A stretch of 64,000 nucleotides of DNA from Thermodesulfobacteriota bacterium (GCA_049514515.1 JBEKUZ010000014.1:2955-66954), one strand, 5' to 3'; shown: positions 7,472 to 26,865, counted from the stretch's first letter. The notes: a model not told the origin generated them from the letters alone. Translations and numbers: made by a program.

Positions 7472-9679
7472 GTGTCAAAGATCATTGCATCTGCTGCCAT
7501 CAGAGGCGCTCATAAGATTGTGGAAAGGGCCGAAACGAAATATCAGGAGGCCCTTAAGAAATGGGGACCGGACCAGGAGGTGGGTTTTCCAAACACGGCT
7601 TACTATCTCCCCGTGATCTATGCGATCCTCGGAATCCCCGTCCAGAAGATAGCGGATATGAAGCCGGTGTTAGATCGTTGCCGGACCTTGCTACCCCCCC
7701 TCGTGAAAGAAAAGGTCGCCCTTCCCTACCTGGCACCTGCCCTCGACGCGGGAATGGCCACTTTCTTTGCGGAGGAGATCATCGAGTCCATCCGGTACCT
7801 GGAAACCCCCAACTTTTACACGAAACAGGAAGACCCCCTGCCCGAGAATATCTGGCTGGGAGCGGCCGACGATGTGATCTTCCGCAAACGTGGCGTTGAA
7901 TTCGTGGACGGAACAGCGCCCGGATTTGCTGCGATCGCAGGCGCCGCGCCCTCGCCGGAAGTAGCTAAAAAAATTGCCATCGAACTTCAGGAGAAGAACC
8001 TCTATATCTTCATGTGCGCGGAGAACGAAGGCAAGCGTTTCTCCCAACAGTTGGTCGAGGCAGGTGTTCAGATCGGATGGCCTACCCGTCTCGTCTCCTT
8101 TGGACCGGATATCAGCGCCGCGGTGTTTGCCATGGGGTTTGCCTGCCGGGTCGCCATGGCCTTTGGCGGTATCAAACCCGGAGATTTTCGAAAGAATTTG
8201 ATTTACAACAAGGACCGAACCTTCGCCTTTGTCATGCCCTTGGGATATGTCAACGATGAGTGGTATGCCAATGCCGCGGGCGCCATCAATTGGGGGTTCC
8301 CGACGATCGCAGATACCCCCATTCCGGAGGTTCTACCTTCCGGCATCTGTACATACGAACACGTGGTCTCCAACATCCCCCACGATCAGATCGTCCAGAG
8401 GGCCGTCGAGGTGAGAGGATTGAAGGTGACCGTCGCTTCTGTTCCCATCCCGGTCTCTTACGGTCCCGCCTTCGAAGGCGAGCGGGTCAGGGGAGAGGAT
8501 ATCTACCTGGAGTGTGGCGGGGGACGAACCCATGCCGTGGAATGGGTGACTTCCAAGAACATGGATGAGGTTGAGGACGGAAAGGTCGATGTGATCGGTC
8601 CTGATTTGGATAAGATAAAACCACCCGGTCAACTCCCCCTCGCGATTGTCGCGGAAGTCGCAGGCCGACAGATGCAGGAGGATTTCGAGCCAATTCTGGA
8701 GAGACAAATCCACCATCTCATCAACTATGCCCAGGGGATCATGCATATTGGTCAAAGGGACATCGCCTGGTTAAGAGTCGGTAAGGGATCGGTGGAAAAA
8801 GGATTTCGTCTCTCCCATCTCGGTAAGATTCTCCATGCAAAGTTCCATCAGGACTTTGGAGCCATCTTCGACAAAGTCCAGGTCAAAGTCTATACGGATA
8901 AAGAAAAAGTGGACGAAATGCTTGCCAAAGCAAGAGACGTCTACAGAAAACGAGATGCCCGCATCGAAGGAATGACCGACGAGACCACGGACATTTTCTA
9001 CTCCTGCACGCTTTGTCAATCCTTTGCACCCAACCATGTCTGTGTCATCAGTCCGGAAAGGACCGGGCTCTGCGGTGCTTACAACTGGATGGACTGCAAA
9101 GCTGCGTTTGAAATCAATCCCACCGGGCCGAATCAACCCGTCCAGAAGGGAGAGATGATCGATACAAAGCTTGGCCGGTGGAAGGGAGTCGACGAATTCG
9201 TGTTCAAGGCCTCCCGTCAGAAAATCGATCACTACAATTTCTATAGCCTAGTTTACGATCCGATGACCACCTGCGGTTGTTGCGAATGCATTGCCGCTGT
9301 GCTTCCGATGTGCAATGGGGTGATGACCGTTAATCGGGATTTTACAGGAATGACCCCATGCGGAATGAAGTTCACCACTCTGGCAGGTTCTGTCGGTGGC
9401 GGCGCGGTGACACCGGGGTTTGTGGGCCACAGTAAATACAATATTACTCAGAGAAAGTGGTTAGTCGGAGATGGCGGTCTCAAAAGACTGGTCTGGATAC
9501 CCAAAATCCTCAAAGAAGAGATTGGAGAACGGTTGAAGAAACGAGCTCAAGAGATCGGCATTCCAAACCTACTGGATATGATTGCAGATGAAACCATTGG
9601 GGTGACGGAAGAGGAAATTCTTCCCTTCCTGACCGAGAAGAATCATCCGGCCCTCTCAATGGATCCGATTCTCGGATAA
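7472..9679 (+). CDS. acsB: acetyl-CoA synthase (CODH/ACS beta subunit, A-cluster)
   Basis: 735 aa, the typical bacterial AcsB length. Follows cooS, with SD ggaaggagg before the GTG/ATG start region. Confidence 0.9.
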   Translation: MSKIIASAAIRGAHKIVERAETKYQEALKKWGPDQEVGFPNTAYYLPVIYAILGIPVQKIADMKPVLDRCRTLLPPLVKEKVALPYLAPALDAGMATFFAEEIIESIRYLETPNFYTKQEDPLPENIWLGAADDVIFRKRGVEFVDGTAPGFAAIAGAAPSPEVAKKIAIELQEKNLYIFMCAENEGKRFSQQLVEAGVQIGWPTRLVSFGPDISAAVFAMGFACRVAMAFGGIKPGDFRKNLIYNKDRTFAFVMPLGYVNDEWYANAAGAINWGFPTIADTPIPEVLPSGICTYEHVVSNIPHDQIVQRAVEVRGLKVTVASVPIPVSYGPAFEGERVRGEDIYLECGGGRTHAVEWVTSKNMDEVEDGKVDVIGPDLDKIKPPGQLPLAIVAEVAGRQMQEDFEPILERQIHHLINYAQGIMHIGQRDIAWLRVGKGSVEKGFRLSHLGKILHAKFHQDFGAIFDKVQVKVYTDKEKVDEMLAKARDVYRKRDARIEGMTDETTDIFYSCTLCQSFAPNHVCVISPERTGLCGAYNWMDCKAAFEINPTGPNQPVQKGEMIDTKLGRWKGVDEFVFKASRQKIDHYNFYSLVYDPMTTCGCCECIAAVLPMCNGVMTVNRDFTGMTPCGMKFTTLAGSVGGGAVTPGFVGHSKYNITQRKWLVGDGGLKRLVWIPKILKEEIGERLKKRAQEIGIPNLLDMIADETIGVTEEEILPFLTEKNHPALSMDPILG

Positions 9680-9687
9680 TTGAAGCA

Positions 9688-9768
9688 AAGCGCTAAGCGC
9701 AGAGCGCATAGCGTTAAATCCTTATTACGAGAAGTTCGCTATGCGCCATGCTCTATGCGCTATGCGAA
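9688..9768. repeat. intercistronic hairpin of GCGCTAAGCGCAGAGCGCATAGCG / CGCTATGCGC...CGCTATGCG repeats between acsB and acsC
   Basis: Inverted copies of the GCGCATAGCG unit flank a loop of about 25 nt. Confidence 0.7.
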
Positions 9769-9788
9769 ATTGGAAAGGAGCGACTATC

Positions 9789-11132
9789 ATGGGAATGACA
9801 GGGATCCAAATCTTTAAGCTATTACCTAAAACCAACTGTAAGGAGTGCGGCGTTCCAACCTGTCTCGCTTTTGCCATGAACCTGGCTGCCGGAAAAGCAG
9901 AATTGGCCTCCTGTCCCTATGTGTCTGAGGAGGCAAAAGCCATGCTCTCTGAAGCCGCGGCGCCGCCGATTCGACCCCTTGCCATTGGCGCGGGTGAAAA
10001 TGTGGTCAAGGTCGGTGGAGAAACGGTTTTGTTCCGTCATGAAAAGACCTTTGTCAACAAACCTGGTATTGCTATTCTGATCAGTGATACCATGCCGGAG
10101 GCAGAGGTCACTGCCCGCTTGAAGCGATTCAAGGAATTGAAATACGAAAGGGTCGGTCTGACCTTGCGGCCGGAGTTGATCGCGGTCAAGAACGAATCAG
10201 GCGACCCCGGAAAATTCGAAGCCTTGATCAAAAAGGTAAAAGGTGAAACCGATGCAGCCCTCATCCTGATGAGCGCCAAGGTGGATGCCTTGACGGCAGG
10301 CGTGAAGGCCTGCGCGGATCGTGTCCCGTTGATTTACGCGGCAACCGACGGCAATAGCGATGCCTTGGCCAATCTTGCCAAAGAAAACAAATGTCCGCTG
10401 GCGGTCAAAGCCGACAATCTTGATGCATTGCTCGCACTTTCTGACAAACTAACCGCCGCAGGCTTAAAAGACCTGGTCCTTGATTCCGGATCAAGGACCC
10501 TTCGCAAAGCCTTTGAGGACCAAATCTATATCCGCCGGGCAGCCCTCATCCAAAAAAGCCGCTCCCTCGGATTCCCAACCATTACCTTCCCTTGTGAAAT
10601 GACGAAAGATCCGATGAAAGAGGCCTTGATTGCAGCAACCTTTGTATCGAAATATGCAGGTATCATCGTTCTCTCGGACTTCCAGGGCGAAAGCGTCTTT
10701 CCCCTTCTCGTGGAACGGCTGAATATTTATACCGACCCTCAGCGGCCCATGATGATGCAACAAGGAATCTACCCCATTGGCACCCCGACAGACGCTTCTC
10801 CAGTGCTCATCACGACCAACTTCTCTCTCACCTATTTTATCGTCTCCGGTGAGGTTGAATCGAGTCGGGTGCCGAGCTGGCTTTTGGTGATGGATACCGA
10901 AGGGCTGTCGGTTCTGACCGCCTGGGCCGCAGGAAAGTTCGTGGGCGATGCAATCGGCGCATTCATCAAAAAGAGTGGCATCACCGAGAAAGTCAAGCAT
11001 CGTCGGGTGGTCATCCCCGGAGCGGTTGCAGCCGTAAGCGGCGACCTCGAAGAAGAGCTGGGTAAGGACTGGGAAGTCAAGATCGGACCCAGGGAAGCAG
11101 CTCACATACCCGCCTTTTTGAAGATGGGATAA
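9789..11132 (+). CDS. acsC: corrinoid iron-sulfur protein large subunit (AcsC/CdhE, gamma)
   Basis: N-terminal [4Fe-4S] motif CKECGVPTC...C followed by TIM-barrel and B12-binding regions. The ATG at 9789 has SD ggaaaggag; the ORF-track start at 9741 lacks an SD. Confidence 0.88.
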   Translation: MGMTGIQIFKLLPKTNCKECGVPTCLAFAMNLAAGKAELASCPYVSEEAKAMLSEAAAPPIRPLAIGAGENVVKVGGETVLFRHEKTFVNKPGIAILISDTMPEAEVTARLKRFKELKYERVGLTLRPELIAVKNESGDPGKFEALIKKVKGETDAALILMSAKVDALTAGVKACADRVPLIYAATDGNSDALANLAKENKCPLAVKADNLDALLALSDKLTAAGLKDLVLDSGSRTLRKAFEDQIYIRRAALIQKSRSLGFPTITFPCEMTKDPMKEALIAATFVSKYAGIIVLSDFQGESVFPLLVERLNIYTDPQRPMMMQQGIYPIGTPTDASPVLITTNFSLTYFIVSGEVESSRVPSWLLVMDTEGLSVLTAWAAGKFVGDAIGAFIKKSGITEKVKHRRVVIPGAVAAVSGDLEEELGKDWEVKIGPREAAHIPAFLKMG

Positions 11133-11228: not shown

Positions 11229-12131
11229 ATGTTACGTGTTGGCGAAAACCTGAATGTGATGGTCAAGAAGATTGGAACTGCCATGAAGGACAGAGATCCC
11301 AAGCCTATCCAGGAGTTGGCCCTGGCGGAGGCTAAGGTGGGGGTCGATTTCATCGATATCAACCTCGGACCTGCCCGAAAGGGCGGAGGAGAGTTGATGG
11401 AGTGGATCGTCAAGGTCGTCCAGGAGGTGGTGGATACGCCTCTTTACCTCGATACGATCAATACGGAAGCCATCGAAGCCGGGCTCAAGGTTTACAAGAA
11501 CAAGAAAGGAAAGGCTGTGATCAATTCGATCATGGCCCGCCCCGAAAGCATGGACGCCAAGTTCCCCATCGCACAAAAACACAATGCGGGAATTGTTGCT
11601 CTTCTCTGGGGTCCCTCGGGCCTTCCCCGGGATGCAGACGAGAGAGGAGTCCTGGCAGCGGAGTTAATGCAAAAATGCTTAGAATTCGGGATCCCAGGCG
11701 AAGATGTCTGGATGGATCCCATTGTCACTCCGGTGACCAGCCCGCAGAGCCAGGTTCAGGTTCCGAGTTGTATCGAGTTTATGAAGATGTTCAAGGATCT
11801 CCAAGAAGTGCTCCCCGGGATGAGATCCACCTGCGGTCTTTCGAATGTTTCGAATGGAGCTCCGGAACACCTGAGGCCCATCCTCAATCAAACTTATATG
11901 ATGATGCTCGAACGATATGGGATGGCCTCGGCCATCGTCGATGCCTTTGACGAAGATCTGAAGAAATTTGCTTCGGGGGGAAGAGAGGATCTCAGAAAAC
12001 TCGTCTTCCGGGTCATGGACGGAGAAGAAGTTGATCTCAAGAAGCTGAGTAAAGAACAGGCCGATTATGCGAAGACCACCAGGGTCTTGATTGCCAAGAC
12101 GCTTTACTCCGATTCATGGCTGGAACTGTAA
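11229..12131 (+). CDS. acsE: methyl-THF:corrinoid iron-sulfur protein methyltransferase (pterin-binding, MeTr)
   Basis: 300-aa pterin-binding domain protein placed after acsC. SD gaaggagg precedes the ATG. Confidence 0.85.
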   Translation: MLRVGENLNVMVKKIGTAMKDRDPKPIQELALAEAKVGVDFIDINLGPARKGGGELMEWIVKVVQEVVDTPLYLDTINTEAIEAGLKVYKNKKGKAVINSIMARPESMDAKFPIAQKHNAGIVALLWGPSGLPRDADERGVLAAELMQKCLEFGIPGEDVWMDPIVTPVTSPQSQVQVPSCIEFMKMFKDLQEVLPGMRSTCGLSNVSNGAPEHLRPILNQTYMMMLERYGMASAIVDAFDEDLKKFASGGREDLRKLVFRVMDGEEVDLKKLSKEQADYAKTTRVLIAKTLYSDSWLEL

Positions 12132-12257: not shown

Positions 12258-13175
12258 ATGAAATCAGGAAGCCGTCTCGAGAGGGTCCTTGCAGCTGGAC
12301 ATTTTGCCTTCACCGGTGAACTCGGCCCACCCCAAGGAGCCAATGTGGAGGCGATCAAGAAAAAAGCAAATTATCTAAAGGGGATCACGGATGCGGTGAA
12401 CATCACAGACAACCAGACGGCTGTCGTACGAATGGCAAGTTGGGCGGCTGGCTTGATTGCCATCCAGGAAGGTTTGGAACCCAACTACCAGATGGTCTGC
12501 CGCGATCGTAACCGCATCGCCATGCAGAGCGATATCCTGGGAGCTTACGCTCATGGCATTCGAAATATGCTCTGCCTTTCGGGTGACCACCAACAATTTG
12601 GCAATCACCCTTTGACAAAAGGCGTGTTCGACATCGACTCCATCCAGCTGATCAACATGGTCAAAGGGATGAGGGACAACAAGAAATTTCTGAACGGGGA
12701 TGACATTGATGGGGCCCCGCAGTTATTCATCGGCGCTGCAGCCAACCCCTTTGCCGAACCTTTCGAATTCAGGGTGCACCGTTTGGCGAAAAAGGTCGCG
12801 GCGGGTGCCGATTTCATCCAGACCCAGTGTATCTACGACATGAAAAGGTTCCGAGAGTGGATGAAACAGGCCGACGATATGGGACTGACCGAGAAGGTCA
12901 ATATTCTGGCGGGAGTCACTCCTCTGAAATCAGGAGGTATGGCCCGGTATATGGCCAAGAACGTCTCCGGCATCATCATCCCCGATGAGATCATTGATCG
13001 AATTGTAAATGCCAAAAAAGCCTCAGAAGAAGGAATCAAACTCTGCGTTGAACAAATCGAAGAATTGAAAGAGATGAAGGGGGTTCGTGGCGTTCATCTG
13101 ATGGCCATTGAATGGGAACACAGGGTTCCAGAAATTGCGGAACGGGCTAAGTTGATACCCAGGCCTCAAGTTTAG
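12258..13175 (+). CDS. metF: 5,10-methylenetetrahydrofolate reductase, acetogen-type (copy 1)
   Basis: MetF-like TIM barrel; about 65% identity to the copy at 26965. SD gaggaag precedes the ATG at 12258; the ORF track uses the GTG at 12252. Confidence 0.88.
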   Translation: MKSGSRLERVLAAGHFAFTGELGPPQGANVEAIKKKANYLKGITDAVNITDNQTAVVRMASWAAGLIAIQEGLEPNYQMVCRDRNRIAMQSDILGAYAHGIRNMLCLSGDHQQFGNHPLTKGVFDIDSIQLINMVKGMRDNKKFLNGDDIDGAPQLFIGAAANPFAEPFEFRVHRLAKKVAAGADFIQTQCIYDMKRFREWMKQADDMGLTEKVNILAGVTPLKSGGMARYMAKNVSGIIIPDEIIDRIVNAKKASEEGIKLCVEQIEELKEMKGVRGVHLMAIEWEHRVPEIAERAKLIPRPQV

Positions 13176-13254
13176 GCAGTTAAATTAGCCTCCCGAAACT
13201 CGGAAGGCACACGAAGGGTGACGGCGGAGAAAGACTGAGAATGAGGAGAGATCC

Positions 13255-13914
13255 ATGTTGGCTTTTATTCGGGGACAGCTGATATCGATTGCTTTTGTTG
13301 TGTTTGTTCTAGGGCTGATATTCCATTTTATCCAATTTTTCAGATTGACCAGGAAAAAAGAATGGGCTTACCCTCCCCTGGAAATAAAGTCGCAAAAGAA
13401 AACACCGGGACAGTGGGTCACTTCCTGCCTGGCATCCCTTAACGGAACCCTCTGGAAAACCTATCCCGTTGTGACAGTCATGACTTCCGTTTTCCACGTC
13501 TTTTTGATCGGGGTGCCTCTTTTTCTGCTCGGCCATAATATGCTCCTGAGCCAATCCTGGGGTCTTAGCTTTTGGAGCTTGCGCGAATCTGTCACCGACG
13601 TCTTAACCGTCGTCGTTATCGTCTGTGCGGCCTTTTTCCTCGGCCGGCGATTATTCCTCGCCCGCGTTCGGGCCATCACGACGGCCTATGACTATCTCGT
13701 CCTGCTTATCGCGGTGGCCCCCTTTCTGACGGGGTACTTCGCATACCACCAGTGGTTTGATTATCGCACGGTGATGACCATCCACATTCTGTCGGGAGTG
13801 GTCATGCTTATCACGATCCCGTTTACGAAACTCGGCCACATGCTCTTTTTCTTTCTCTATCGATTCCTGATCGGAACCGAATACAGTTTCGCAAGGGGAG
13901 CCCGGGCCTGGTAA
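13255..13914 (+). CDS. NarI/HdrE/DsrM-type di-heme cytochrome b membrane subunit
   Basis: 219 aa with about 5 predicted TM helices and conserved His in helices 2 and 5 (FHVF..., HILSG...GHM). SD gaggag precedes the start. Confidence 0.7.
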   Translation: MLAFIRGQLISIAFVVFVLGLIFHFIQFFRLTRKKEWAYPPLEIKSQKKTPGQWVTSCLASLNGTLWKTYPVVTVMTSVFHVFLIGVPLFLLGHNMLLSQSWGLSFWSLRESVTDVLTVVVIVCAAFFLGRRLFLARVRAITTAYDYLVLLIAVAPFLTGYFAYHQWFDYRTVMTIHILSGVVMLITIPFTKLGHMLFFFLYRFLIGTEYSFARGARAW

Positions 13915-13944
13915 CGGAAAGAATCTTGCGGCATGGAGAACACT

Positions 13945-14346
13945 ATGTCTCATCAGGAATTGAAACCAGTCGACACAAAACAGATCCAAGGGATGCTCAG
14001 CCGGAAAAAGGGCAAAATGAAACGATTTTTGTCCTACTGTGCCCATTGCAGCCTTTGTGCCGAAAGCTGTTTTTTATACATGGAGCACCATAAGGATCCG
14101 CAATACATGCCCTCATATAAGGCGATCAATTCCTTGGGCAAATTATACAGAAAAAACGGTAAGGTAGACCGGAAGCTTTTGACGGAGATGAAGGGCATTG
14201 TCTGGAGAAACTGTGTGCTTTGCGGCCGTTGTTATTGCCCCATTGGGATTCATATCCCGAGCATGATTGCCTTTGCCAGAAGCATCCTCAGGTCCCAGGA
14301 TGTCTATCCTCAGCTGGATGAGGTTTCGTCGGAGAGCTGGTTGTAA
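13945..14346 (+). CDS. 2x[4Fe-4S] ferredoxin-like subunit (HdrC/HdrD-N/DsrK-N-like; no CCG domain)
   Basis: Motifs CAHCSLCAESC and CVLCGRCYCP. The start may be the ATG at 13933 or at 13945; the latter has a GGAG SD. Confidence 0.65.
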   Translation: MSHQELKPVDTKQIQGMLSRKKGKMKRFLSYCAHCSLCAESCFLYMEHHKDPQYMPSYKAINSLGKLYRKNGKVDRKLLTEMKGIVWRNCVLCGRCYCPIGIHIPSMIAFARSILRSQDVYPQLDEVSSESWL

Positions 14347-14377
14347 TACGGAGGGAAATTTGCGAAGGAGAAAGGGT

Positions 14378-14785
14378 ATGAAATGGACCGGCTGTAGCCT
14401 CTGGATGATCGCGTTTGCTGCTCTCCTGATGTTAAGCCACTCTCCCGTCAACGCACAGCCGGATAAGATGATATTGGATCTTTCGGCCATCTCCGGGAAG
14501 ACAACGAGACCCCCGGTGAGCTTTCCTCACAACCGCCACGTGGAAGCAGGCTTGTCCTGTAAGGACTGCCATCACATCTACGAAAACGGGAAAAACGTTC
14601 TGGACGAAAGTAAACTCGAGGAAGGAAATAAGGGCATCCGTTGCTCTGCCTGTCATGGTCCGAAATCCCAAGCCAATCTCGAACAGGCCTTTCACAATCA
14701 ATGCGTCGGCTGTCACACAAAATACGAGAAAGAAAAGAAGAAGACAGGTCCCCGGTACTGTGGGGAATGTCATATACGAAAATAG
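14378..14785 (+). CDS. periplasmic tetraheme cytochrome c3 (type I c3-like)
   Basis: Signal peptide MKWTGCSLWMIAFAALLMLSHSPVNAQP and four CxxCH motifs (CKDCHH, CSACHG, CVGCHT, CGECHI) within about 135 aa. Confidence 0.85.
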   Translation: MKWTGCSLWMIAFAALLMLSHSPVNAQPDKMILDLSAISGKTTRPPVSFPHNRHVEAGLSCKDCHHIYENGKNVLDESKLEEGNKGIRCSACHGPKSQANLEQAFHNQCVGCHTKYEKEKKKTGPRYCGECHIRK

Positions 14786-14804
14786 CGTAGCCGGAGGAAG
14801 AAAA

Positions 14805-15479
14805 ATGATTGTTGGGGAAAGAAAACCTTTTGACGAGATCAAGGAAATGATCAAGAGCTTCAAGAAGGTTCTGAATGTGGGTTGCGGGGGTTGTACATCC
14901 ATCTGCATGGCCGGCGGTCAAAGAGAAGTCGGACTCTTAAATGAGGAACTCCAGAACGCCTTCAAGCAGGAGGGAGCCTCGTCTCGGGTGGATGGGTTCA
15001 CCATTGAGCGACAGTGCAATGCCGATTTCTTCTCGGAGCTGGACGAGATCGTAAAAGAATATGATGGCTTGTTGTCCATGGCTTGTGGAGCCGGGGTCCA
15101 ATTCCTTGCCGACCGATACCCTCAAAAACCGGTGTTTCCCGCTTTGAACACCGTTTTCGTCGGCGTCGACCGGGATATCGGGTGGTTCGAGGAGAATTGC
15201 AGGACGTGCCGTGAGTGCGTCTTGGGAGAAACAGGAGGAATATGCCCTGTTACAAGGTGCGCCAAAAGTCTCTTCAACGGCCCCTGCGGAGGAACTTCTC
15301 GGGAGGGTAAATGCGAAGTGAGCAAGGATACTCCTTGCGCCTGGTTTGAGATCCATAAACGCCTGAAGGAACAAAACAGGCTGGAGAACATTCTGAGGCT
15401 GAAACCCGCAAGGGAATGGCGAAATCAAACTCAGGGAACCCTCGTTCAGGAAGCCTATAAGAAGAGATATGCGAAATGA
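14805..15479 (+). CDS. metV: MetV-type zinc/FeS small subunit of methylene-THF reductase (copy 1)
   Basis: Cys motifs GCGGCTSIC and CRTCRECV...CP.TRCAKSLFNGPCGG. Paralog of 26195-26863, with SD ggaggaag. Confidence 0.8.
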   Translation: MIVGERKPFDEIKEMIKSFKKVLNVGCGGCTSICMAGGQREVGLLNEELQNAFKQEGASSRVDGFTIERQCNADFFSELDEIVKEYDGLLSMACGAGVQFLADRYPQKPVFPALNTVFVGVDRDIGWFEENCRTCRECVLGETGGICPVTRCAKSLFNGPCGGTSREGKCEVSKDTPCAWFEIHKRLKEQNRLENILRLKPAREWRNQTQGTLVQEAYKKRYAK

Positions 15480-15562
15480 GACAGGCTGCTGAAAAGGGAA
15501 GCCCTTTCCCGGTTGAAAGCGTTCCCGTGCTTCAGGAGCCCATGTCAATTCTTCACAAGCCT

Positions 15563-15593
15563 TGACAGATTTTTCCCTGGGGTTTTATAATTT
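15563..15593 (+). promoter_or_regulatory. near-consensus sigma70 promoter (TTGACA, 17-18 nt spacer, TATAAT)
   Basis: cTTGACAgatttttccctggggttTTATAATtt, located about 330 nt upstream of the metF2 ATG. Confidence 0.55.
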
Positions 15594-15922: not shown

Positions 15923-16798
15923 ATGACATTTAAGGAACGATTGGATTCGGGAAAATTCGCAGTCGTCGTCGAGCTCCAGCCTCCTAAGGGAAGCGACGTC
16001 TCCGAGTTGTACGACTATGCCGAACTCTTCAAAGGGCGCGTGGATGCGATCAACGTGCCAGACCTCCAGAATGCCATCATGAGGCTGGGATCCCTTTCAG
16101 TATGCACCCTGCTAAAGGCAAAAAAGGGGATGGAGGTGATCTACAATCTCTCCTGTAGCGACCGGAACCGATTGGCACTGCAATCCGAACTCTTAAACGC
16201 CTCCACTCTGGGCCTCAAGAACCTCTTCCTCGTCCACGGCGATCAACCCTCTACCGGGGATCACTTCGAAGCCAAAGCGGTCTTTGATCTCGACGTCATG
16301 GGTTTGCTCGGCGCGGCCAAGCGTCTCCAAGAAGGCTACGACCTCGCAGGGAATGATCTTCAAGGAAAACCAAAATTCTGCGTAGGCACCCACATCAACG
16401 CCGCCGCGAAAGGTCATGTCCTCGACCTAGAGGTCATGGACATGGAGAAGAAGATACGGATGGGAGTTGATTTCTTCTTCACCCATTCGATCTACGATGC
16501 AAGCCTTTTTGAGGCCTTCGCCAAAAAAGTGGCACACTTCAAGGTCCCCATCATCGCTGGCATCACCCTGCTCAAATCAGTGGGCATGGCCCGCTATGTA
16601 AACAAGCATGTGGAGGGAGCTTCCATCCCGGATTCAGTCATCGACCGAATGATGAAGGCGTCGGATAAACAGCAGGCAAGCGTTGAGATCGCCGGGGGTC
16701 TGATCAAGGCGTTGAAACCACTCTGCCAAGGAGTCCAGATCATTCCCATCGGATGGGAAAAACAGGTCCCCGCGCTCCTGGATTATGCAGGACTGTAG
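15923..16798 (+). CDS. divergent MetF-family methylene-THF reductase-like protein (copy 2, orphan)
   Basis: 291 aa with a MetF fold but much lower identity to copies 1 and 3. SD gagaggag precedes the ATG at 15923. The upstream in-frame extension from 15836 has no SD and overlaps a structured leader. Confidence 0.75.
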   Translation: MTFKERLDSGKFAVVVELQPPKGSDVSELYDYAELFKGRVDAINVPDLQNAIMRLGSLSVCTLLKAKKGMEVIYNLSCSDRNRLALQSELLNASTLGLKNLFLVHGDQPSTGDHFEAKAVFDLDVMGLLGAAKRLQEGYDLAGNDLQGKPKFCVGTHINAAAKGHVLDLEVMDMEKKIRMGVDFFFTHSIYDASLFEAFAKKVAHFKVPIIAGITLLKSVGMARYVNKHVEGASIPDSVIDRMMKASDKQQASVEIAGGLIKALKPLCQGVQIIPIGWEKQVPALLDYAGL

Positions 16799-16847: not shown

Positions 16848-19313
16848 ATGGAAGGGGTGAGGACCGAAGGGTTACCTTGTTTTCCTGTCAACCCGAAGGA
16901 AATAGGCTACCCCGGGACGGTTATGACTGTCAAAAAACCAACTGCGCCGACAAAAAGAAAGAAACCGCCCGAGCCACTTATCCTTGTCAAGAAGAAGGAG
17001 GTGGGCTCAGAGATGTTTCAATCCATCGCCGAATTGGGAAACGACGGGATCTTAGTATTTGATGATCGCTATCAGATCCAATTTGCAAATCGGATGGCTT
17101 CCGAAATCACCGGATATTCGAGCCGAGAGTTGCTGAAAATGTCGGTCCTCTCCCTTTTAGGCAAGCCCCATCCATCCTTTGTCGAAGACCTCTTCAGCCA
17201 TCCTGAACGTTATGGCGAGAAAACGTGCGCCGAGGTTCAGCTTTGCACCTCTCGTGAAGAGATCAAAGAGGTCGAGATTTGTATTGCCTTGGCGGAGGCA
17301 CCCCAAGGAGCCCGGAAGGGCTATGCCTACCTCCAAGATATTACGGAGTCGAAAAGAATGGAGCGGCGGATCCGGGAGGCCACCCAACAATTCGAGAAAA
17401 TCGCTGAGATGGGGGACGATGGAATCCTGGTCTTCGATCAGACGTTTAAGATCATTTTTGCCAATCAGATGGCCTCCGAAATCACCGGGATTCCCAAGAA
17501 AGAATTGATCGGAAGAAATTTCTTCTCGGTCATTGGAAAAGAGAACAAACAATTTCTTGAGGGAACGGTCACCCGCGGTGTGGGAATAGGCGAGAAGCTC
17601 TGCACCGAAATGAATATCCTGACCTCCCAGGGGCAGGTCAAGGATGCAGAGGTTTGTATTGCTTTGGCCGAGTCGGATACGGGAGAGGTTAAGACCTATG
17701 CGTACATCCGGGACATCACAGACCGGAAAAAATTCGAGAGGGACCTCAGGGATTCTGGGGAAAAACTCAGAGACCTCTTCGAAAGGGTGAGGCATGGTCT
17801 CTTCATCAGCTCGAAGGAGGGCAAGTTTTTGGACTGTAACCAGGCCCTGCTCGATATGCTGGGATATCCTACGAAAGAAGAATTTCTCAAAATAGATATC
17901 ACCCAGGATCTCTACGTCAACCCGGAGGATCGGAGAGCTTTTCAGGAGAGGATCGAAAGAGAGGGGCATGTCAAAGACTTGGAGGTGGAATTCAGAAAGG
18001 GGAACGGGGACAGGATCACCGTCTTGCTGACCTCTCACCCGATCAAGAATGAGAAGGGAGAGGTCGTCGGCTACCAGGGGATCAACCTGGATATCTCCGA
18101 GAGAAAGCGGATCGAGAATCAACTTCGCGAAGCCAATGAATTCTTCATGAACCTGATCGAGAGTTCCGTGGATGGGATCATCGCGGCGGACATGAAAGGC
18201 AATATCTTCATCTTTAACAAAGGAGCGGAGGCGCTGACCGGATACAAGGCAGAGGAGGTGATCGGCAAGCTCCATATTACCAAGATCTACAAAGAGGGCG
18301 TGGCGAAAGAAATCATGAAGAAACTCCGAAGCCAGGAATACGGGGGGGTAGGAAAATTTATTCCCACCCAGATGAACGCGGTCAATAAGTTTGGGAAAGA
18401 AATCCCCATTCAGCTCTCCGCCGCCCTCATCTATAACGGGAGCGGCCAGGAAATCGCCAGTGTGGGTATCTTTACGGATTTGAGACCCCGCCTGAACATG
18501 GAAAAGAAGCTCCAAGAGACCCACCTGCAACTAGTCAGTTCCGAGAAGATGGCGTCTCTCGGAAAACTGGCAGCGGGAATCGCCCATGAGATCAACAACC
18601 CTTTGGGTGGAATTCTTATTTACTCCAGTCTGATGATGGAGGACCTTCCCGAGACGGATTCGCGGCGGGCAGATTTGGTTCGAATCGTTCAGGAGGCAGG
18701 CCGCTGTAAGGAGATCGTCAAGAGCCTCCTTGAATTCGCTCGCCAAACCGAACCGAAGATGGAACCCACTGACATCAATCGAGCCATTACGGACGGACTC
18801 TTCTTCCTGGTGAATCAGGCTTTATTCCACAACATCCATATCGTGAAGAAACTCGACGCCTTCCTGCCCTTCGTCCGCGGAAATGCAAGCCAATTGAAAC
18901 AAGTCTTCATGAATATTATCGTGAATGCGGCAGAAGCGATGCGCGGCGGCGGAACGCTGACCATCACGACCTTCTGTGCCCCGGATCAGAAGACGGTCTT
19001 TGTGGAGTGTACCGATACCGGGGAGGGCATTCCCCCGGAGAACCTCACCCGAATCTTCGATCCCTTCTTCACCACCAAGGAGGTGGGAAAGGGGACGGGG
19101 CTGGGACTCGCCACTTCTTATGGAATCGTTGAGGACCACGGGGGAAAGATCAGCGTAAAAAGCCAGGCGGGTGAAGGCACCACGTTTACCATCGAGCTTC
19201 CCGTTCATCACGAAACGCAGGCGATCCTGGAAAACCCTTCCATTCAAGATCGAGGAGCATATGACGGAACTGAACGCACGGGAAAACCAGAAGGCAAATC
19301 CCTTCCTGTCTGA
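16848..19313 (+). CDS. cytoplasmic multi-PAS sensor histidine kinase (about 4 PAS, HisKA, HATPase_c)
   Basis: Repeated PAS blocks (GILVFD...FAN.MASEITG seen twice), an H-box AHEINNPLGGI, and G-boxes DTGEGI / GTGLGLA. No TM segment. The start is uncertain: 16848, 16923 or 17010. Confidence 0.8.
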   Translation: MEGVRTEGLPCFPVNPKEIGYPGTVMTVKKPTAPTKRKKPPEPLILVKKKEVGSEMFQSIAELGNDGILVFDDRYQIQFANRMASEITGYSSRELLKMSVLSLLGKPHPSFVEDLFSHPERYGEKTCAEVQLCTSREEIKEVEICIALAEAPQGARKGYAYLQDITESKRMERRIREATQQFEKIAEMGDDGILVFDQTFKIIFANQMASEITGIPKKELIGRNFFSVIGKENKQFLEGTVTRGVGIGEKLCTEMNILTSQGQVKDAEVCIALAESDTGEVKTYAYIRDITDRKKFERDLRDSGEKLRDLFERVRHGLFISSKEGKFLDCNQALLDMLGYPTKEEFLKIDITQDLYVNPEDRRAFQERIEREGHVKDLEVEFRKGNGDRITVLLTSHPIKNEKGEVVGYQGINLDISERKRIENQLREANEFFMNLIESSVDGIIAADMKGNIFIFNKGAEALTGYKAEEVIGKLHITKIYKEGVAKEIMKKLRSQEYGGVGKFIPTQMNAVNKFGKEIPIQLSAALIYNGSGQEIASVGIFTDLRPRLNMEKKLQETHLQLVSSEKMASLGKLAAGIAHEINNPLGGILIYSSLMMEDLPETDSRRADLVRIVQEAGRCKEIVKSLLEFARQTEPKMEPTDINRAITDGLFFLVNQALFHNIHIVKKLDAFLPFVRGNASQLKQVFMNIIVNAAEAMRGGGTLTITTFCAPDQKTVFVECTDTGEGIPPENLTRIFDPFFTTKEVGKGTGLGLATSYGIVEDHGGKISVKSQAGEGTTFTIELPVHHETQAILENPSIQDRGAYDGTERTGKPEGKSLPV

Positions 19314-19830
19314 AGTGGCTCAGGCCAGCGGCGAAAAAATTAGCGCCTGTTTTCAATGCCAGAAATGTTCGGCAGGATGTCCCATCGCTTATGCGATGGA
19401 TGTCCTCCCCAATCAAATGCTCCGTCACATCCAGTACGGCCATCGGGAAAAGGTCCTCACCTCAAACACGATTTGGATCTGCGCCTCCTGCTACACGTGC
19501 AGCGTTCGATGCCCGAATAACATCGATATTGCCAAAATCATGGATACATTAAGAGCGCTGGCCGTGCATTCTGAATTCAAACCCGGAGAAAAGGATATCC
19601 CCATTTTCCACTCCGCTTTTTTAGACACAATCAAATCAAGAGGCCGGATTCACGAGCTCAGCCTCATCCTCCAATTTAAATCCAAGACGAAAGATTTTTT
19701 TAAGGATGCTGCCTTGGGATGGAAGATGTACCGCAAGGGGAAGATTAAACTGCTGCCGTCGAAATTTTGCGGTGGAAAAAAAGAGGTTAAGGAGATTTTC
19801 AACGCTTTTGAGAAAGGAGCGAGACAATAA
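19261..19830 (+). CDS. hdrC: heterodisulfide reductase subunit C
   Basis: CFQCQKCSAGCP and CASCYTCSVRCP motifs in about 189 aa. SD gaggag precedes the ATG at 19261. The gene overlaps the 3' end of the histidine kinase gene by about 53 nt. Confidence 0.85.
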   Translation: MTELNARENQKANPFLSEVAQASGEKISACFQCQKCSAGCPIAYAMDVLPNQMLRHIQYGHREKVLTSNTIWICASCYTCSVRCPNNIDIAKIMDTLRALAVHSEFKPGEKDIPIFHSAFLDTIKSRGRIHELSLILQFKSKTKDFFKDAALGWKMYRKGKIKLLPSKFCGGKKEVKEIFNAFEKGARQ

Positions 19831-19975
19831 AGCACCAAATCCCAAGCACCAAACCCCAAACAATGACCAAAGCTCCAATGACCGAAATGTGTGGGTTGGG
19901 TCATTTGGGCATTGCTTATTGTAATTTATTTGGGATTTGGAATTTGGAGATTGGGATTTGAATTGCTGAGGAAGA
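19831..19975. repeat. long imperfect hairpin of CCAAATCCCAA / TTGGGATTTGG degenerate repeats (hdrC-hdrB spacer)
   Basis: The left arm is ccaaatcccaagcaccaaaccccaaa...aatgacc. The right arm is ggtcatt...atttgggatttggaatttggagattgggatttg. Confidence 0.75.
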
Positions 19976-19980
19976 TAAAA

Positions 19981-20832
19981 ATGAAAGAGGTCTCTTACTA
20001 TCCTGGATGCTCCCTTCACGGAACCGCCCGAGAGTACGATGATTCAATCCGAGGCGTATCCAAACTCCTCGATATTCAGCTCTACGAATTAGAGGATTGG
20101 ACCTGTTGCGGGGCGAGCTCAGCCCACTGCACGGATGAAAAGCTGGCCATCGATCTCGCCGCCCGGAATCTTGGTCTCGCCGAAAAGAACGATCGCGACT
20201 TGCTGGTCCCGTGTGTGGCATGCTACAGCCGATTTAAGGCAGCGGAGAAAGAGGTCAAGGAACACCCGGAAAAAGTCCATCTTTCCTACCACGGCAATGT
20301 CCCCATTCGATATGCACTGGACTTTTTCTGCGACGATGGCATCTTAGAAGAGGTGAAAAAAAAGCGCGCAAAGTCCCTCTCAGGGCTTAAGGTGGCTTGC
20401 TACTACGGTTGCCTTACCGTTCGACCTCCAAAAATGACAGGCGTGCGGGAATATGAGAACCCTCAACATATGGACCGATTGATGAAAACCCTGGGCGCTG
20501 ATCCTGTTCCATGGTGCTACAAAACCGATTGTTGTGGAGCCAGTCTCGTGATGACGCGGACAGACATCGTTAAGAAATTGAACGACCGCCTCCTCTCCAT
20601 GGCAATGGAGGCCGAGGCGGACTGTTTGGTCACGGGCTGTCCGATGTGTCAGGCCAATCTCGATACCCGCCAGGGAGAATTGGAGAAGGAGACGGGCAAG
20701 AGATACAATCTCCCCATCCTTTACTTTACGGAATTGATGGGGTTGGCCCTGGGTCATAAAGATGTCAGGAAATGGCTTCACCGGCACATCACAGACCCCA
20801 TGAAGATATTGAGTGCGAAGGGATTAATGTAA
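19981..20832 (+). CDS. hdrB: heterodisulfide reductase subunit B (two CCG domains)
   Basis: CCGAS motif present twice, in Cys-rich CCG-domain context. SD gaggaag precedes the ATG at 19981. Confidence 0.85.
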   Translation: MKEVSYYPGCSLHGTAREYDDSIRGVSKLLDIQLYELEDWTCCGASSAHCTDEKLAIDLAARNLGLAEKNDRDLLVPCVACYSRFKAAEKEVKEHPEKVHLSYHGNVPIRYALDFFCDDGILEEVKKKRAKSLSGLKVACYYGCLTVRPPKMTGVREYENPQHMDRLMKTLGADPVPWCYKTDCCGASLVMTRTDIVKKLNDRLLSMAMEAEADCLVTGCPMCQANLDTRQGELEKETGKRYNLPILYFTELMGLALGHKDVRKWLHRHITDPMKILSAKGLM

Positions 20833-20839
20833 TCAAATG

Positions 20840-20990
20840 CGTAAAATTCCAAGTACCAAGCACCAAATTCCAAATAAGCACCAATGTTCGAAATACGAAT
20901 TTACTAAACGAGAAAGTTTTGAATTTTGATATTGGAATTTGGGATTTGTTTGGGATTTGGAATTTGTGATTTGGAATTTAAAACGACCCA
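20840..20990. repeat. second CCAAAT(T/C)CCAA / TTGG(A/G)ATTTGG hairpin repeat block (hdrB-hdrA spacer)
   Basis: ccaagtaccaagcaccaaattccaaat ... attggaatttgggatttgtttgggatttggaatttgtgatttggaattt. Confidence 0.75.
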
Positions 20991-21013
20991 AAGAAAAGCC
21001 GCCGGAGTCAGGA

Positions 21014-24000
21014 ATGATGGGAGACCAAATGCAAGAAAAAGCTGGAGATAAAGTAGGAGCAGTGATGGTCGTCGGAGGTGGGATCGCCGGGATCCAAGCA
21101 TCCCTCGACCTCGCCGAATCTGGCTACTATGTCTATCTGGTGGAGTCGTCGCCTGCGATTGGCGGGGTGATGGCCCAATTGGATAAGACCTTCCCCACGA
21201 ACGACTGCTCCATGTGCATCATCTCTCCCAAGCTGGTCGAGGCAGGCCGTCATCTTAACATTCGTATCCTGACGGCCACCGATGTCGAAGGGATCTCAGG
21301 CGAGCCAGGAAATTTTACCGTCCGCCTTCATCAACATGCCCGCTTTGTGGACACGGCCAAATGCACGGGATGCGGTGATTGTGCAGCCGCCTGTCCCATC
21401 ATCCGTCCCGATGAGTTCAACGCCCTGCTCTCCACGCGCAAGGCGATCTACAAAAAATATCCCCAAGCCATCCCGAATGCCTTCGCCATCGAAAAACGTG
21501 GCGAAGCGCCATGCCGTAACGCCTGTCCGATTGAACAGCGCGCCATGGGCTATGTCGCACTCATCCGTGAGAAACGCTTTGCCGATGCGTACCGAACCAT
21601 CAAAGAAGATAACCCTTTCCCTTCCGTGTGCGGACGCGTATGCAACCACCGGTGTGAGGAGGCTTGCACGCGAACCGAGGTGGGAAGTGAACCCGTCAAC
21701 ATCATGCATTTCAAACGTTTTGTGAGCGACTGGGCATTCGCACATCCTGAAGAGATCCAGAAGGTGTACGCGTCGGGGGTCCAGAAAGCTCCGGATACCA
21801 GTGGAGCGGGGAAAAAAGTCGCCATTGTCGGCGCTGGTCCAGCGGGGTTGACCGCGGCCAACGACTTGATCCGTAAAGGTTACTCCGTGACCGTCTTCGA
21901 AGCGCTGCCTGCACCGGGTGGAATGATGCGCGTAGGCATCCCGGAATATCGCATGCCCTATGACTTGCTCCAATGTGAGATAGATGAAATCATCTCAAGA
22001 GGGGTGGAACTGAAGCTGAACCACCGCGTGCAAGATGTGACAGGGTTGCTCGAAGATTTTGACGCGGTCTTTGTTGCAGCAGGCGCTCATATTGGCATTA
22101 AGCTCCCTATCCCTGGAAATGACCTGCCCGATGTTCACATCACCACAGACTTCTTGCGCGAGGTCAGCCTTTCAGGAGCATCAAACATCAAATCAAAAAT
22201 TGCGAATAAACGCATCTTGGTCCTCGGTGGCGGGAATGTAGCCATTGATGCGGCTATGTCTTCAGTGCGAATGGGCGCAAGCTGGGTGGGCATGTCTTGC
22301 CTTGAGAGTCGAGAAAAAATGCCTGCCCACGATTGGGAAGTCCGTGACGCTCAGGATGAAGGCATTGATGTCTATCCCGGCCGAACGTTCAAGGAGGTAA
22401 CAAACAAAGACGGGTATATCACAGGCGTACGAACCGTCGACGTGGATTTCCGAGGCTTTATTGAAGGCCGGCCTGATTTTGACGAGATCCCCGGGACAGA
22501 GACAGTCATTCCTTGTGATGTGGTTATCTTTGCCATCGGCCAGAGGCCTGACCTTACTTTGTTGAGCAACAAGGTAGAGACGGTGCGCGGCCGGACAGTA
22601 GCGGCTGATAAAGACACACTTGCGACCAATGTGCCGGGGATTTTTGCTGGCGGCGATGTGGTCACGGGAACAACTTTTGTCGTGGATGCCATCTCTGCAG
22701 GACACAAGGCAGCGCGCTCGATTGAAGCCTACCTGAAACAGGAAGAGAAAGAAGCAAGGATATGGCCGCCGGTTTTAGAATCCATCGAAAAGCTCCCCGA
22801 GGCTAAACTCGAACCATCTCAGGCAAAACAGCTCATGGAGGTCAAGTCACAAGCTGCTCGTGCAGTCCCTAAAAAGCGTGAAGCGGGCGAGCGCAAGGGC
22901 GATTTTTCAGAAGTGGAATCAGGGCTGACCGAAGAAGAAGTGATCGAGGCAGCCAGGCGATGCCTGGAATGCGGCATCTGCTCCGAGTGTCTGCAGTGCG
23001 TCTTCGCCTGCCGTGCGGGGGCCGTCAATCATGATGACCGCGAGAAAATCGTTGACCTCCAGGTCGGAGCGGTCATTCTGACACCCGGGTTTAAAACCGT
23101 GGACGGAAATATTCGGCCCGAATTCGGCTACGGTGTCTACCCAAATGTCGTCACAAGCATCGAGTTCGAACGGATGCTCAGTGCCAGCGGCCCTTATGCC
23201 GGTGTGGTCCAGCGTCCTTCGGATGCAGGACACCCGCGAAAGATCGCTTTTATCCAGTGTGTCGGAAGCCGCGATATCTCTTGTGGACAGGATTACTGTT
23301 CATCCGTGTGCTGCATGTACGCGACGAAAGAGGCCATCATTGCCAAAGAACATGCCAATTTTGTCGAGCCCACCATCTTTTATATGGATGTCCGGGCTTA
23401 TGGGAAAGGGTTCGATGCGTATTATGAGAGAGCAAAATCCGAATACGGCGTCCGGTTCATCAAGTGTATGGTCTCCAGAATTAGGGAGCATTTTAAAACA
23501 AAAAATCTCCTGGTGACTTACCTGGATGAAGAAGCCAAGTTCGTGGAAGAGGAATTTGATTTGGTCGTTCTTTCTGTAGGCATGGTCCCATCCAAGGAAA
23601 CGGTTGAGATGGCGAAACGGATGGGCGTTGAGGTGGAGTCTCATGGATTCTGCAAGACAAAACCTTTCGAGCCCACCTCGACATCCAAACCAGGCGTCTA
23701 CGTCTGCGGGGTGTTTCAAGGGCCGAAAGACATCCCGGAAACGGTCTCTCAGGCAAGCGGTGCCGTGGCCGATGCCACAGGACTGATCGCTTCGGCACGG
23801 GGAACCATGGTCACCAAAAAAGAATATCCTCCCGAGGCGGATGTGACAGCGGAAGAACCCCGCATCGGCGTCTTCGTCTGCAATTGCGGCATCAACATCG
23901 GAGGCGTGGTCAATGTGCCTGAAGTCAGGGAGTACGCGAGGACACTGAAAAACGTCGTCCACGTTGAGGACAATCTCTACACCTGTTCCCAGGACACCCA

Positions 24001-25531: not shown

Positions 25532-25612
25532 GTTCGGAGTTCAGAGTTCGGAGTATCTGGTTTTGTCTCCGAACTCCGAGCTAAATTACTCCCAACTATA
25601 AATAGAGGGTTG
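25532..25612. repeat. about 80-nt hairpin element (GAGTTCGGAGTTCAGAGTTCGGAGT...TCTCCGAACTCCGAGC + CTAAATTACTCCCAACTAT); copy 1
   Basis: Near-identical copy at 26866-26960. The arms are inverted repeats. Confidence 0.8.
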
Positions 25613-25614
25613 AG

Positions 25615-26133
25615 ATGGAGGCAGTTCAGCGGAAAATGGAATCAGGGCACGGGCCGCAAAGGACGGACACGGATCACGGACACGGACACGTTTTTGAGCC
25701 CGAGGTCCTGGCCTTTTGCTGTGAGCATTGAGCCTACAGTGCGGCGGACCTGGCAGGTTCGATGAGGCTCAACTACCCTACGAACGTGAAGATTGTGAAG
25801 GTTCCCTGCACAGGGAGAGTGGATATCCTCCTCATTCTCCATGCCTTTGAATCAGGGGTGGATGGAGTTTACCTGGCAGGGTGCTTGGAGGGAGAGTGTC
25901 ATTTCTTGAGAGGTAATTTAAGGGCCAAGAAGAGAGTTCAGTATGCGAAGAAATTATTAGATGAGGTAGGATTAGGAGGGGCTCGACTAGAGATGTACAA
26001 CATGAGCTCGGCTCAAGGTCAGCGTTTTGCCGAGGTCGCCCGTGAGATGACAGAGAAAATAAAAGCCTTGGGGCCGTCACCCGTTAAGAACAGGGTCCGA
26101 GGGGTCCAGGATTCTAGGGGTCAAGTGAAGTAA
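25615..26133 (+). CDS. mvhD: MvhD/FlpD-family [2Fe-2S] protein with in-frame UGA (predicted selenocysteine) at 25729-25731
   Basis: The ORF track calls only 25762-26133, which begins inside the conserved MvhD core (NVKIVKVPCTGRVD...GCLEGECHF). Reading upstream in frame gives ...FEPEVLAFCCEH-TGA-AYSAADLAGS, which aligns with the MvhD N-terminal motif EPKIVGFLCNWCSYAGADLAG. The TGA falls on the conserved Cys. The ATG at 25615 has a GAGGG SD. Confidence 0.65.
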
Positions 26134-26172: not shown

Positions 26173-26194
26173 AATCCTTTCATTGGAGGTTAGA

Positions 26195-26863: not shown

Positions 26864-26865
26864 GT

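Follow-up and report, generated by a model that had tools for sequence, protein, structure and literature searches.

In a 64,000-nucleotide stretch of DNA from a Thermodesulfobacteriota bacterium (GCA_049514515.1, JBEKUZ010000014.1:2955-66954; hereafter "the window"), five adjacent genes at positions 12258–15479 probably encode a single membrane-bound methylene-tetrahydrofolate (methylene-THF) reductase (MTHFR) of the MetFV type, in which MetV and MetF would replace a lost CCG domain as the catalytic head of an electron conduit of the Tmc/Hmc type; we give this reading a probability of roughly 0.6. The genes stand in the order metF1, cytochrome b, iron–sulfur (FeS) protein, cytochrome c3, and metV1, and, judged from their sequences, the three middle ones are a diverged Tmc/Hmc-type module, clearly derived from the Tmc family although their products score under all three family cut-offs. 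The CCG head is absent in just those cases in which MetVF occurs, and subunit replacement is the simplest model for this association. The whole analysis is computational, and the source lineage is an uncultured Thermodesulfobacteriota of the Syntrophales/Syntrophaceae type.

Composition of the five-gene module

The preliminary description of this DNA had proposed five co-directional genes on the + strand, and open reading frames (ORFs) and Pfam matches bear this out. The first, metF1 (12258–13175, +), encodes the flavin catalytic subunit, with a match to PF02219 of 134.8 bits (E = 5e-39, cut-off 24), matches to MTHFR in the PDB, and the conserved E (TGELGPP), D (LSGD), and TQ motifs as read from its sequence. 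The last, metV1 (14805–15479, +), encodes the FeS electron-input subunit (PF12225, 117.5 bits, E = 2.1e-34, cut-off 23), whose 13 Cys include CxxCxxxC and CxxCxxC and which contains FNGPCGG, in keeping with the NGPCGG/Cys motif definition of MetV (PMC8515935). As a rule metV lies directly upstream of metF in MetFV systems, often overlapping it, whereas here three genes stand between the two. The intergenic gaps measure 79, 30 (18 from an alternative start of the FeS gene), 31, and 19 nt, so that the earlier figures were right for the last three and one nucleotide too high, at 80, for the first. A GGAG-type Shine–Dalgarno ribosome-binding site can be read 5–9 nt before every one of the five starts.

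The cytochrome b gene (13255–13914, +) encodes a putative membrane anchor of 219 aa. NCBIfam is needed for its identity because Pfam alone under-calls it: the match to the NarI family (Nitrate_red_gam, PF02665) reaches 16.6 bits, under the 22.9 cut-off, when NCBIfam TmcC (NF045723) matches at E = 2e-56 (190.9 bits, under the equivalog cut-off of 240) and HmcE at E = 1e-51. Five transmembrane (TM) helices are predicted with a positive-inside pattern, the loops at residues 27–71, 131–139, and 191–219 being rich in Lys and Arg, which implies an N-terminus outside and a C-terminus inside, like NarI. Four His residues (H81, H94, H177, and H195) align with the heme ligands H56, H66, H187, and H205 of NarI and do not vary in either of two independent homolog sets (26 and 28 sequences, 32–91% identical to the window protein). 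Searched against the PDB, an AlphaFold2 model (pLDDT 74.7) retrieves NarI chains only (probability 1.00, TM-score 0.51–0.54). The TmcC/HmcE matches, the five helices, the four ligands, and the NarI-only fold matches together point to a TmcC/HmcE-like di-heme cytochrome b with a NarI-type fold, broadly in line with the former assignment to the NarI/HdrE/DsrM type; the protein differs from NarI in its Pfam score, in its unrelated partner subunits, and in that Lys86 of the quinone site is not conserved.

The FeS gene (13945–14346, +) encodes 133 aa, or 137 aa if translation begins at the alternative ATG at 13933, with Fer4_8/Fer4_17 domains. Its product has exactly eight Cys, arranged as C32xxC35xxC38xxxC42 and C90xxC93xxC96xC98P, predicted to suffice for two [4Fe-4S] clusters, and neither a TM segment nor a signal peptide nor a CCG domain was found in it by sequence inspection and profile searches; these features agree with the small 2x[4Fe-4S] protein described before and with a cytoplasmic location. 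The profiles that it matches are much longer and are covered in part only, at positions 38–154 of 457 for HmcF (E = 6.4e-30), 23–137 of 430 for TmcB (E = 5.7e-24, 84.5 bits against a cut-off of 735), and, more weakly, the N-terminal positions 30–149 of 453 for DsrK (E = 9.7e-9). On these matches, the protein is the N-terminal ferredoxin part of TmcB/HmcF/DsrK, and is predicted to be without a catalytic site itself. One of the loci surveyed below (L052) contains a bona fide Tmc that does pass the cut-offs, with a TmcB of 741 bits (>735) in which the CCG part is present and a TmcC of 330 bits. We considered whether the window protein might be a truncated pseudogene and rejected this, since its homologs form a large family (468 database matches, the best 120 of which are all 133–145 aa long with Fer4 domains only) and since 61 columns are invariant in a 27-sequence alignment, the cluster ligands all included; the uniform length and these columns indicate that the short form is a genuine protein. 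Searches of PDB sequences with the FeS protein and with MetV gave no meaningful matches.

At its C-terminus (window 14320–14346) the FeS protein ends in E-S/T-W-L in 27 of 27 Syntrophales-type homologs (ESWL in 26 and ETWL in one, with E, W, and L invariant). The ESWL tail is also present in L074; in the Desulfobacterales versions the protein closes with ...QYD(R)E. This tail may be a docking element.

The cytochrome c3 gene (14378–14785, +) encodes 135 aa that pass the Pfam threshold of PF02085 (E = 1.1e-14), the best NCBIfam match being TmcA (E = 1.7e-23, 82.8 bits, under the cut-off of 114). Four CxxCH motifs and a hydrophobic N-terminal leader, MKWTGCSLWMIAFAALLMLSHSPVNA|Q (ending in VNA|Q), are present in the protein, whose mature part contains eight His. 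On the strength of the Pfam match, the four motifs, and the leader, the earlier view of a signal-peptide-bearing, periplasmic tetraheme cytochrome c3 is retained. The calculated isoelectric point of the mature protein is 8.8, that is, not acidic, and its PDB matches are HmcA domains and the cytochrome c3 entry 3cao. In several other loci (L028–L031, L043, L051, and L071) the partner downstream of metF is an HmcA-like cytochrome of 500–650 aa with 16–17 CxxCH motifs, which usually starts with a signal-peptide-like N-terminus; this parallels the split between Tmc and Hmc.

The NCBIfam matches to TmcC/HmcE, HmcF/TmcB, and TmcA thus substantiate the notion of a minimal Tmc/Hmc-type conduit. [quoted passage not shown] The window module shares with it a predicted periplasmic tetraheme c3 (TmcA-like), a di-heme cytochrome b anchor (TmcC-like), and an FeS subunit homologous to the TmcB N-terminus, but its proteins fall below the equivalog cut-offs, its FeS subunit has no CCG domains, MetV/MetF stand in place of the catalytic domain, and the gene order is another. 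As for the Trp-rich TmcD, there is no room for a further ORF between metF1 and metV, the gaps being at most 79 nt, and the rest of the window was not profile-searched for it. HmcABCDEF is similar in that HmcE and HmcF come first or second among the profiles that the window's cytochrome b and FeS protein match and in that some relatives carry the 16–17-heme HmcA-like cytochrome; it is different in that the window module has no HmcB, HmcC, or HmcD (NrfC/NrfD-type) genes, a shortened FeS protein, and MetVF attached. DsrMK(JOP) and HdrDE likewise combine a NarI-type di-heme cytochrome b with a cytoplasmic subunit that bears an N-terminal 2x[4Fe-4S] ferredoxin domain, yet DsrK and HdrD additionally carry the CCG catalytic domain for (hetero)disulfides that the window FeS protein does not have. 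Existing annotations of the proteins discussed here read "hypothetical protein," "respiratory nitrate reductase subunit gamma," "Fe-S oxidoreductase," or "heterodisulfide reductase subunit C."

Conservation of the gene set across genomes

We scanned one genome per GTDB species with an eight-sequence alignment of the cytochrome b, which gave 372 confirmed loci, and fetched the best 80; in each locus, simple longest-ORF calls were compared with the window proteins. Since the choice of these 80 followed their similarity to the query, the MetVF-linked type is enriched among them and canonical Tmc/Hmc loci are under-sampled. The closest locus (L004) has a cytochrome b 95% identical to that of the window. 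Non-redundant loci contained 81 cytochrome b copies, 67 of them followed by a short FeS gene (at most 200 aa) and 11 by a long one (213–465 aa, TmcB or HmcF by profile). A metV and/or metF gene lies within 4 kb on the same strand in 66 of the 67 short-FeS loci, the exception (L041) being cut by the end of its contig, and in none of the 11 long-FeS loci (Fisher p = 1.5e-12, a value that ignores relatedness and is computed from phylogenetically non-independent counts). Conservation of the neighborhood, chosen beforehand as the test of the arrangement, thus proved strong.

The gene set is kept through at least five gene orders. The order of the window, metF-cytb-FeS-c3-metV(-metF2), occurs in Syntrophales-type genomes, some Desulfobacterales, and Ca. 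Anaeroferrophillacea; c3-metV-cytb-FeS-metF is found in metagenome-assembled genomes (MAGs) labeled Desulfobacula, Desulfotignum, and Desulfosudis oleivorans, labels that for MAGs are possibly unreliable, as well as in Desulfoluna limicola and Desulfatiferula olefinivorans; several loci each have (acsBCE-)cytb-FeS-metV-metF followed by the 16–17-heme HmcA-like cytochrome, or cytb-FeS-c3-metV(-metF); and seven have cytb-FeS-metV alone. A module inserted between metF and metV, as first described, is therefore the form taken in the window's own lineage, when other lineages have the c3-metV-cytb-FeS-metF order or that ending in the multiheme cytochrome. In a neighbor-joining tree of the cytochrome b, which is distance-based and midpoint-rooted and thus indicative only, the canonical long-FeS copies form one clade with all MetVF-linked copies outside it, and the gene orders follow the clades.

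Conserved as it is in dozens of genomes, the arrangement lies far past chance, and we rejected mere adjacency by chance because the set is maintained across several orders and these different gene orders. A related view, that the module is a coincidental neighbor or a decaying remnant of Tmc with a truncated TmcB and no functional tie to MetFV, could draw on the sub-threshold scores of all three Tmc-like proteins and on the resemblance of the FeS protein to a shortened TmcB; the size and uniformity of the short FeS family, the invariance of all heme and cluster ligands, and the retention of the set across orders and arrangements make it very improbable.

Three MetF and two MetV proteins can be told apart in the window: MetF1 and MetV1 in the module, MetF2 next to it, and MetV2 (26183–26863, +) and MetF3 (26965–27888, +) in a separate Hdr-linked set. 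MetF1 is 62% identical to MetF3, and MetV1 46% identical to MetV2. Module-linked MetF proteins from other orders share 70–76% identity with MetF1 against 59–65% with MetF3, and module-linked MetV proteins 52–70% with MetV1 against 39–48% with MetV2. Conversely, the Hdr-linked MetV of three loci (L001, L008, and L027) is closer to MetV2, the MetF beside it being about equidistant (54–58% to MetF1 and 50–56% to MetF3). These identities indicate that the module-linked MetF and MetV are an orthologous subfamily of their own, distinct from the Hdr-linked MetFV of the window. Because module-linked copies are closer to MetF1/MetV1 whatever the gene order, the module appears to travel with its own MetFV subfamily, as would be expected of a dedicated complex rather than of casual co-location.

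A looser association can also be envisaged, in which the three middle genes form a free-standing, reduced Tmc whose FeS protein exchanges electrons with diffusible ferredoxin or flavodoxin, MetFV being co-regulated and drawing on the same carrier pool, so that the coupling is functional and not physical. Reduced ferredoxin and flavodoxin, in free form, serve MetFV enzymes as electron donors (PMC8515935), gene order is variable, and one clade, described below, has no adjacent metF. The link to metV is however near-absolute, even in that clade, the module is inherited together with a MetF/MetV subfamily dedicated to it, and the loss of the CCG domain exactly where MetVF appears fits subunit replacement better than the sharing of a soluble pool, all of which leaves this scheme with little likelihood.

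Proposed electron path and alternative partners

What the sequences themselves show are the genes and their domains, the sidedness signals, the ligands of hemes and clusters, and a conserved association with a co-inherited MetFV isoform; the physical complex, the electron path, its direction, and its energy coupling are what we infer from these patterns. In the membrane-bound complex that we favor, electrons would pass from the periplasmic tetraheme c3 (the 16–17-heme HmcA-like cytochrome in some lineages, perhaps the quinone pool where a cytochrome is absent) to the distal heme b (H94/H177), then to the proximal heme b (H81/H195), and from there to the two [4Fe-4S] clusters of the short FeS subunit. 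By homology with TmcB/DsrK/HdrD, this subunit would be seated against the cytochrome b on its cytoplasmic side, where it could act as a membrane-tethered ferredoxin for MetV. The two [4Fe-4S] clusters of MetV would come next, followed by the MetF flavin and, finally, the methylene-THF/methyl-THF couple. Such a role for MetV and MetF agrees with the purified MetFV of Clostridium ljungdahlii, which takes electrons from reduced ferredoxin and not from NAD(P)H and consists of a flavin-containing MetF and a MetV with two [4Fe-4S] clusters (PMC8515935).

The conduit would be reversible. The couples at stake lie at about −200 mV (E0′) for methylene-THF/methyl-THF and −414 mV for H2 (PMC9430772, PMC6895022). 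In the reductive direction, with H2 or formate and CO2 as substrates, periplasmic oxidation of H2 or formate would drive cytoplasmic methylene-THF reduction, and scalar protons would produce a proton gradient. In the oxidative direction, during acetyl-CoA oxidation by sulfate reducers or syntrophs, electrons from methyl-THF would be exported to the periplasmic cytochrome pool, a process that the membrane potential would help since negative charge moves outward; export of this sort would correspond to the reversed electron transport that has been postulated for Thermacetogenium phaeum. We advance only tentatively the fuller claim that the module performs either a reductive "methylene-THF respiration" or a potential-driven oxidative export and that it defines a new, widespread MTHFR class (MetFV with cytochrome b, FeS protein, and cytochrome c) in Desulfobacterota.

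The most obvious other partner on the membrane side is the quinone pool. The cytochrome b might work as it does in DsrM, HdrE, and NarI, the complex being then a methyl-THF:menaquinone oxidoreductase to which the c cytochrome is an accessory or an alternative entry point. With menaquinone at about −74 mV, the oxidative direction would be exergonic, and the NarI fold and NarI-type heme ligands suit such a function, as does the existence of MetVF-linked loci without a cytochrome c, for which quinone is the obvious partner. Membranes of T. phaeum and Sporomusa ovata are moreover reported to show MTHFR activity dependent on the quinone analogue anthraquinone-2,6-disulfonate (AQDS) (PMC6895022, PMC9430772). 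Nevertheless, the closest characterized relatives of the cytochrome b are TmcC and HmcE rather than DsrM and NarI, Tmc is described as a c3-fed conduit from periplasm to cytoplasm (PMC5109826), and a multiheme cytochrome c is retained in 57 of the 68 MetVF-linked loci. The position aligned with Lys86 of the NarI quinone site, R110 in the window protein and mostly Pro in homologs, adds to these points in so far as the NarI residue is not kept, being itself uninformative as a quinone marker. We regard quinone coupling as a possible but less probable variant; for the clade that has no cytochrome c, the gene content suggests that the cytochrome b may exchange electrons with the quinone pool.

Several observations weigh against a membrane-bound complex fed by a periplasmic cytochrome. 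A cytochrome c gene is absent from 11 of the 68 MetVF-linked loci, including one whole clade, that of the cytb-FeS-metV loci (L032, L036, L038, L039, L057, L067, and L078; MAGs labeled Desulfohalobiaceae), in which neither a cytochrome c nor metF occurs within 4.5 kb. It follows from these absences that co-location is not universal for the periplasmic partner, nor even for the catalytic subunit; with no metF adjacent, either MetF is encoded elsewhere in this clade or MetV is differently partnered. The hemes of c3 typically have potentials of about −200 to −400 mV, at or below that of the folate couple, so that the oxidative direction would need the membrane potential or product removal. The sampling by similarity and the relatedness of the loci mentioned above lessen the weight of the co-occurrence counts, and the AlphaFold2 model of the FeS protein, built from the 27-sequence alignment, has a pLDDT of only 52 and is unusable. 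Finally, a complete Hdr-linked MetVF set is present in the same window, so the module is not the sole route.

Genomic setting and relation to known reductases

The module belongs to a Wood–Ljungdahl super-locus on the + strand, in which genes for RACo, a CooC-like ATPase, FolD, AcsD, carbon monoxide dehydrogenase (CODH), AcsB (7472–9679), AcsC (9741–11132), and AcsE precede the five-gene region. The acsE gene (11229–12131, +; PF00809), encoding the methyl-THF:corrinoid methyltransferase, lies directly upstream of metF1, at a distance of 126 nt, which ties the module to the Wood–Ljungdahl gene cluster, and the order acsB-acsC-acsE-module is kept in many related loci. The gaps within the five-gene unit remain short in relatives, and we infer that metF1-cytb-FeS-c3-metV forms one putative transcription unit, possibly running on from acsE. 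A scan of the window for promoters and terminators gave no more sites in total than shuffled sequence, so that only one promoter was retained, because it is conserved in relatives: a sigma-70 consensus TTGACA-18-TATAAT (15562–15591, +; 12/12 match, in silico) between metV and metF2, common to 15 related loci in which the length of the flanking spacer varies. It is likely to set the 3′ limit of the five-gene unit and to open a separate transcription unit for metF2. Between this promoter and metF2 lies a leader of about 330 nt without an Rfam match; no match to Rfam was found across the window, nor in the metV-metF2 spacer even at a relaxed threshold, where a riboswitch had been considered.

The metF2 gene itself (15923–16798, +; PF02219, E = 1.6e-25) encodes a divergent MetF paralog, follows metV only in Syntrophales-type loci, and is an uncertain member of the module. 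MetF2 is 35% identical to MetF1 and reads FFFTHSIYD where MetF1 and MetF3 have FIQTQCIY, the Gln of the TQ motif being replaced by His. Further downstream, the Pfam annotation of a 98–99% identical locus (L002) identifies a PAS-domain sensor histidine kinase (16848–19313, +). Genes for a PAS histidine kinase are also found downstream of the module in L001, Desulfoluna limicola (L084, 9370–12712), and Desulfatiferula olefinivorans (L085, 9433–12397), often accompanied by a second hybrid kinase or a response regulator; the last two carriers are distant and their gene order is different. This conserved neighbor suggests a dedicated two-component regulator of the module.

The Hdr-linked set of the window is a separate MTHFR system of classical type (19171–27888, +). 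Before metV2 and metF3 it comprises hdrC (19171–19830), hdrB with its CCG domain (19891–20832), a gene for a 1530-aa GltD/NfnB-HdrA-HdrA fusion (one GltD/NfnB-like and two HdrA-like modules; 20939–25531), and an FlpD-like mvhD (25762–26133), all on the + strand. None of HdrA, HdrB, and MvhD was found within 12258–15479 by Pfam and NCBIfam searches, and the module thus has no site for flavin-based bifurcation. With the Hdr-linked set beside the module, the organism would possess both a soluble, bifurcation-type and a membrane-type MTHFR system.

Other features of the window are mentioned for completeness. Soon after metV2-metF3 and two response-regulator genes, NuoF-like (Complex1_51K, NADH_4Fe-4S) and NuoG-like (Fer2_4, NADH-G_4Fe-4S_3) genes occupy 30839–33557 (+), which recalls the NuoEFG-linked "X-type" MTHFR (PMC8515935). 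A 952-aa ORF on the opposite strand (53383–56241, −) fuses an aldehyde:ferredoxin oxidoreductase (AOR; AFOR_N/AFOR_C) to an iron-containing alcohol dehydrogenase, an unusual fusion that is of interest given that AOR has been proposed to allow ATP-free acetate activation in T. phaeum (PMC6895022). Two neighboring family III CoA-transferase genes (42976–45667, +), which follow an ABC transporter cluster of the branched-chain-amino-acid type, are unrelated to the module.

Published MTHFR classes comprise the E. coli type, 2S (MetFV), 3S (with RnfC2), 6S (with HdrABC-MvhD), and a speculative X (with NuoEFG) (PMC8515935), and none of them includes cytochromes or a membrane subunit. The preliminary description had gone further in calling all known architectures soluble, which is not accurate, since the MetVF-HdrCBA-MvhD of S. 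ovata is membrane-attached (PMC9430772) and a membrane activity is known in T. phaeum (PMC6895022). The former enzyme, the 6S or type III form shared with Moorella thermoacetica, resembles the window module in having a MetFV core fed through an HdrC-like di-cluster ferredoxin module, and takes part in a chain from H2 over cytochrome b to methylene-THF whose membrane-integral partner has not been identified (PMC9430772); the window module differs from it in encoding the presumed membrane partner (cytochrome b and c3) within the operon and in lacking HdrA, HdrB, and MvhD. T. phaeum faces the same problem as that envisaged here, the disposal of methyl-THF electrons at −200 mV via the membrane and a periplasmic enzyme, and the quinone-analogue-dependent MTHFR activity of its membranes led to the postulate of reversed electron transport (PMC6895022); it is different in that it is a Gram-positive bacterium without c3, in which no membrane anchor has been identified and a link via HdrABC is hypothesized. 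From its gene content, the window module would class as a fifth or sixth MTHFR architecture and, at the same time, as a Tmc-family conduit with an exchanged catalytic head.

A full-text literature search found no paper linking MetFV to a Tmc-like module, an earlier mention being possible (e.g., in Pereira et al. 2011 or in subscription journals). The genome paper of Desulfobacterium autotrophicum lists "MetF-ABC" and two TmcBCA clusters with no explicit link, and papers on Desulfococcus multivorans, Desulfotignum phosphitoxidans, and the sulfate-reducing partners of anaerobic methanotrophic archaea (ANME) discuss Tmc without MetF (PMC5109826 and PMC10553843 among the Tmc sources).

What the association may mean is best seen from the questions that surround the methylene-THF/methyl-THF step and concern its physiological electron partner and possible energy coupling both in acetogens (PMC9430772, PMC8515935) and in acetate oxidizers (PMC6895022). 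This locus and its approximately 65 relatives offer a genetically explicit candidate for the membrane partner of MetFV, made up of a cytochrome b of the Tmc type, an adaptor resembling ferredoxin, and a cytochrome c on the periplasmic side, and because Desulfoluna limicola and Desulfatiferula olefinivorans, both named species, carry the operon, the hypothesis is testable in cultures. If it were true, a new class would join the published MTHFR scheme, and conduits of the Tmc/Hmc type would prove able to exchange their cytoplasmic catalytic head. Oxidative export would then explain how the barrier of methyl-THF oxidation is overcome, with neither NAD+ nor ferredoxin, in complete-oxidizing sulfate reducers and in syntrophic Syntrophales, and, more generally, these bacteria would have at their disposal a mechanism either for the disposal of methyl-THF electrons or for methylene-THF respiration.

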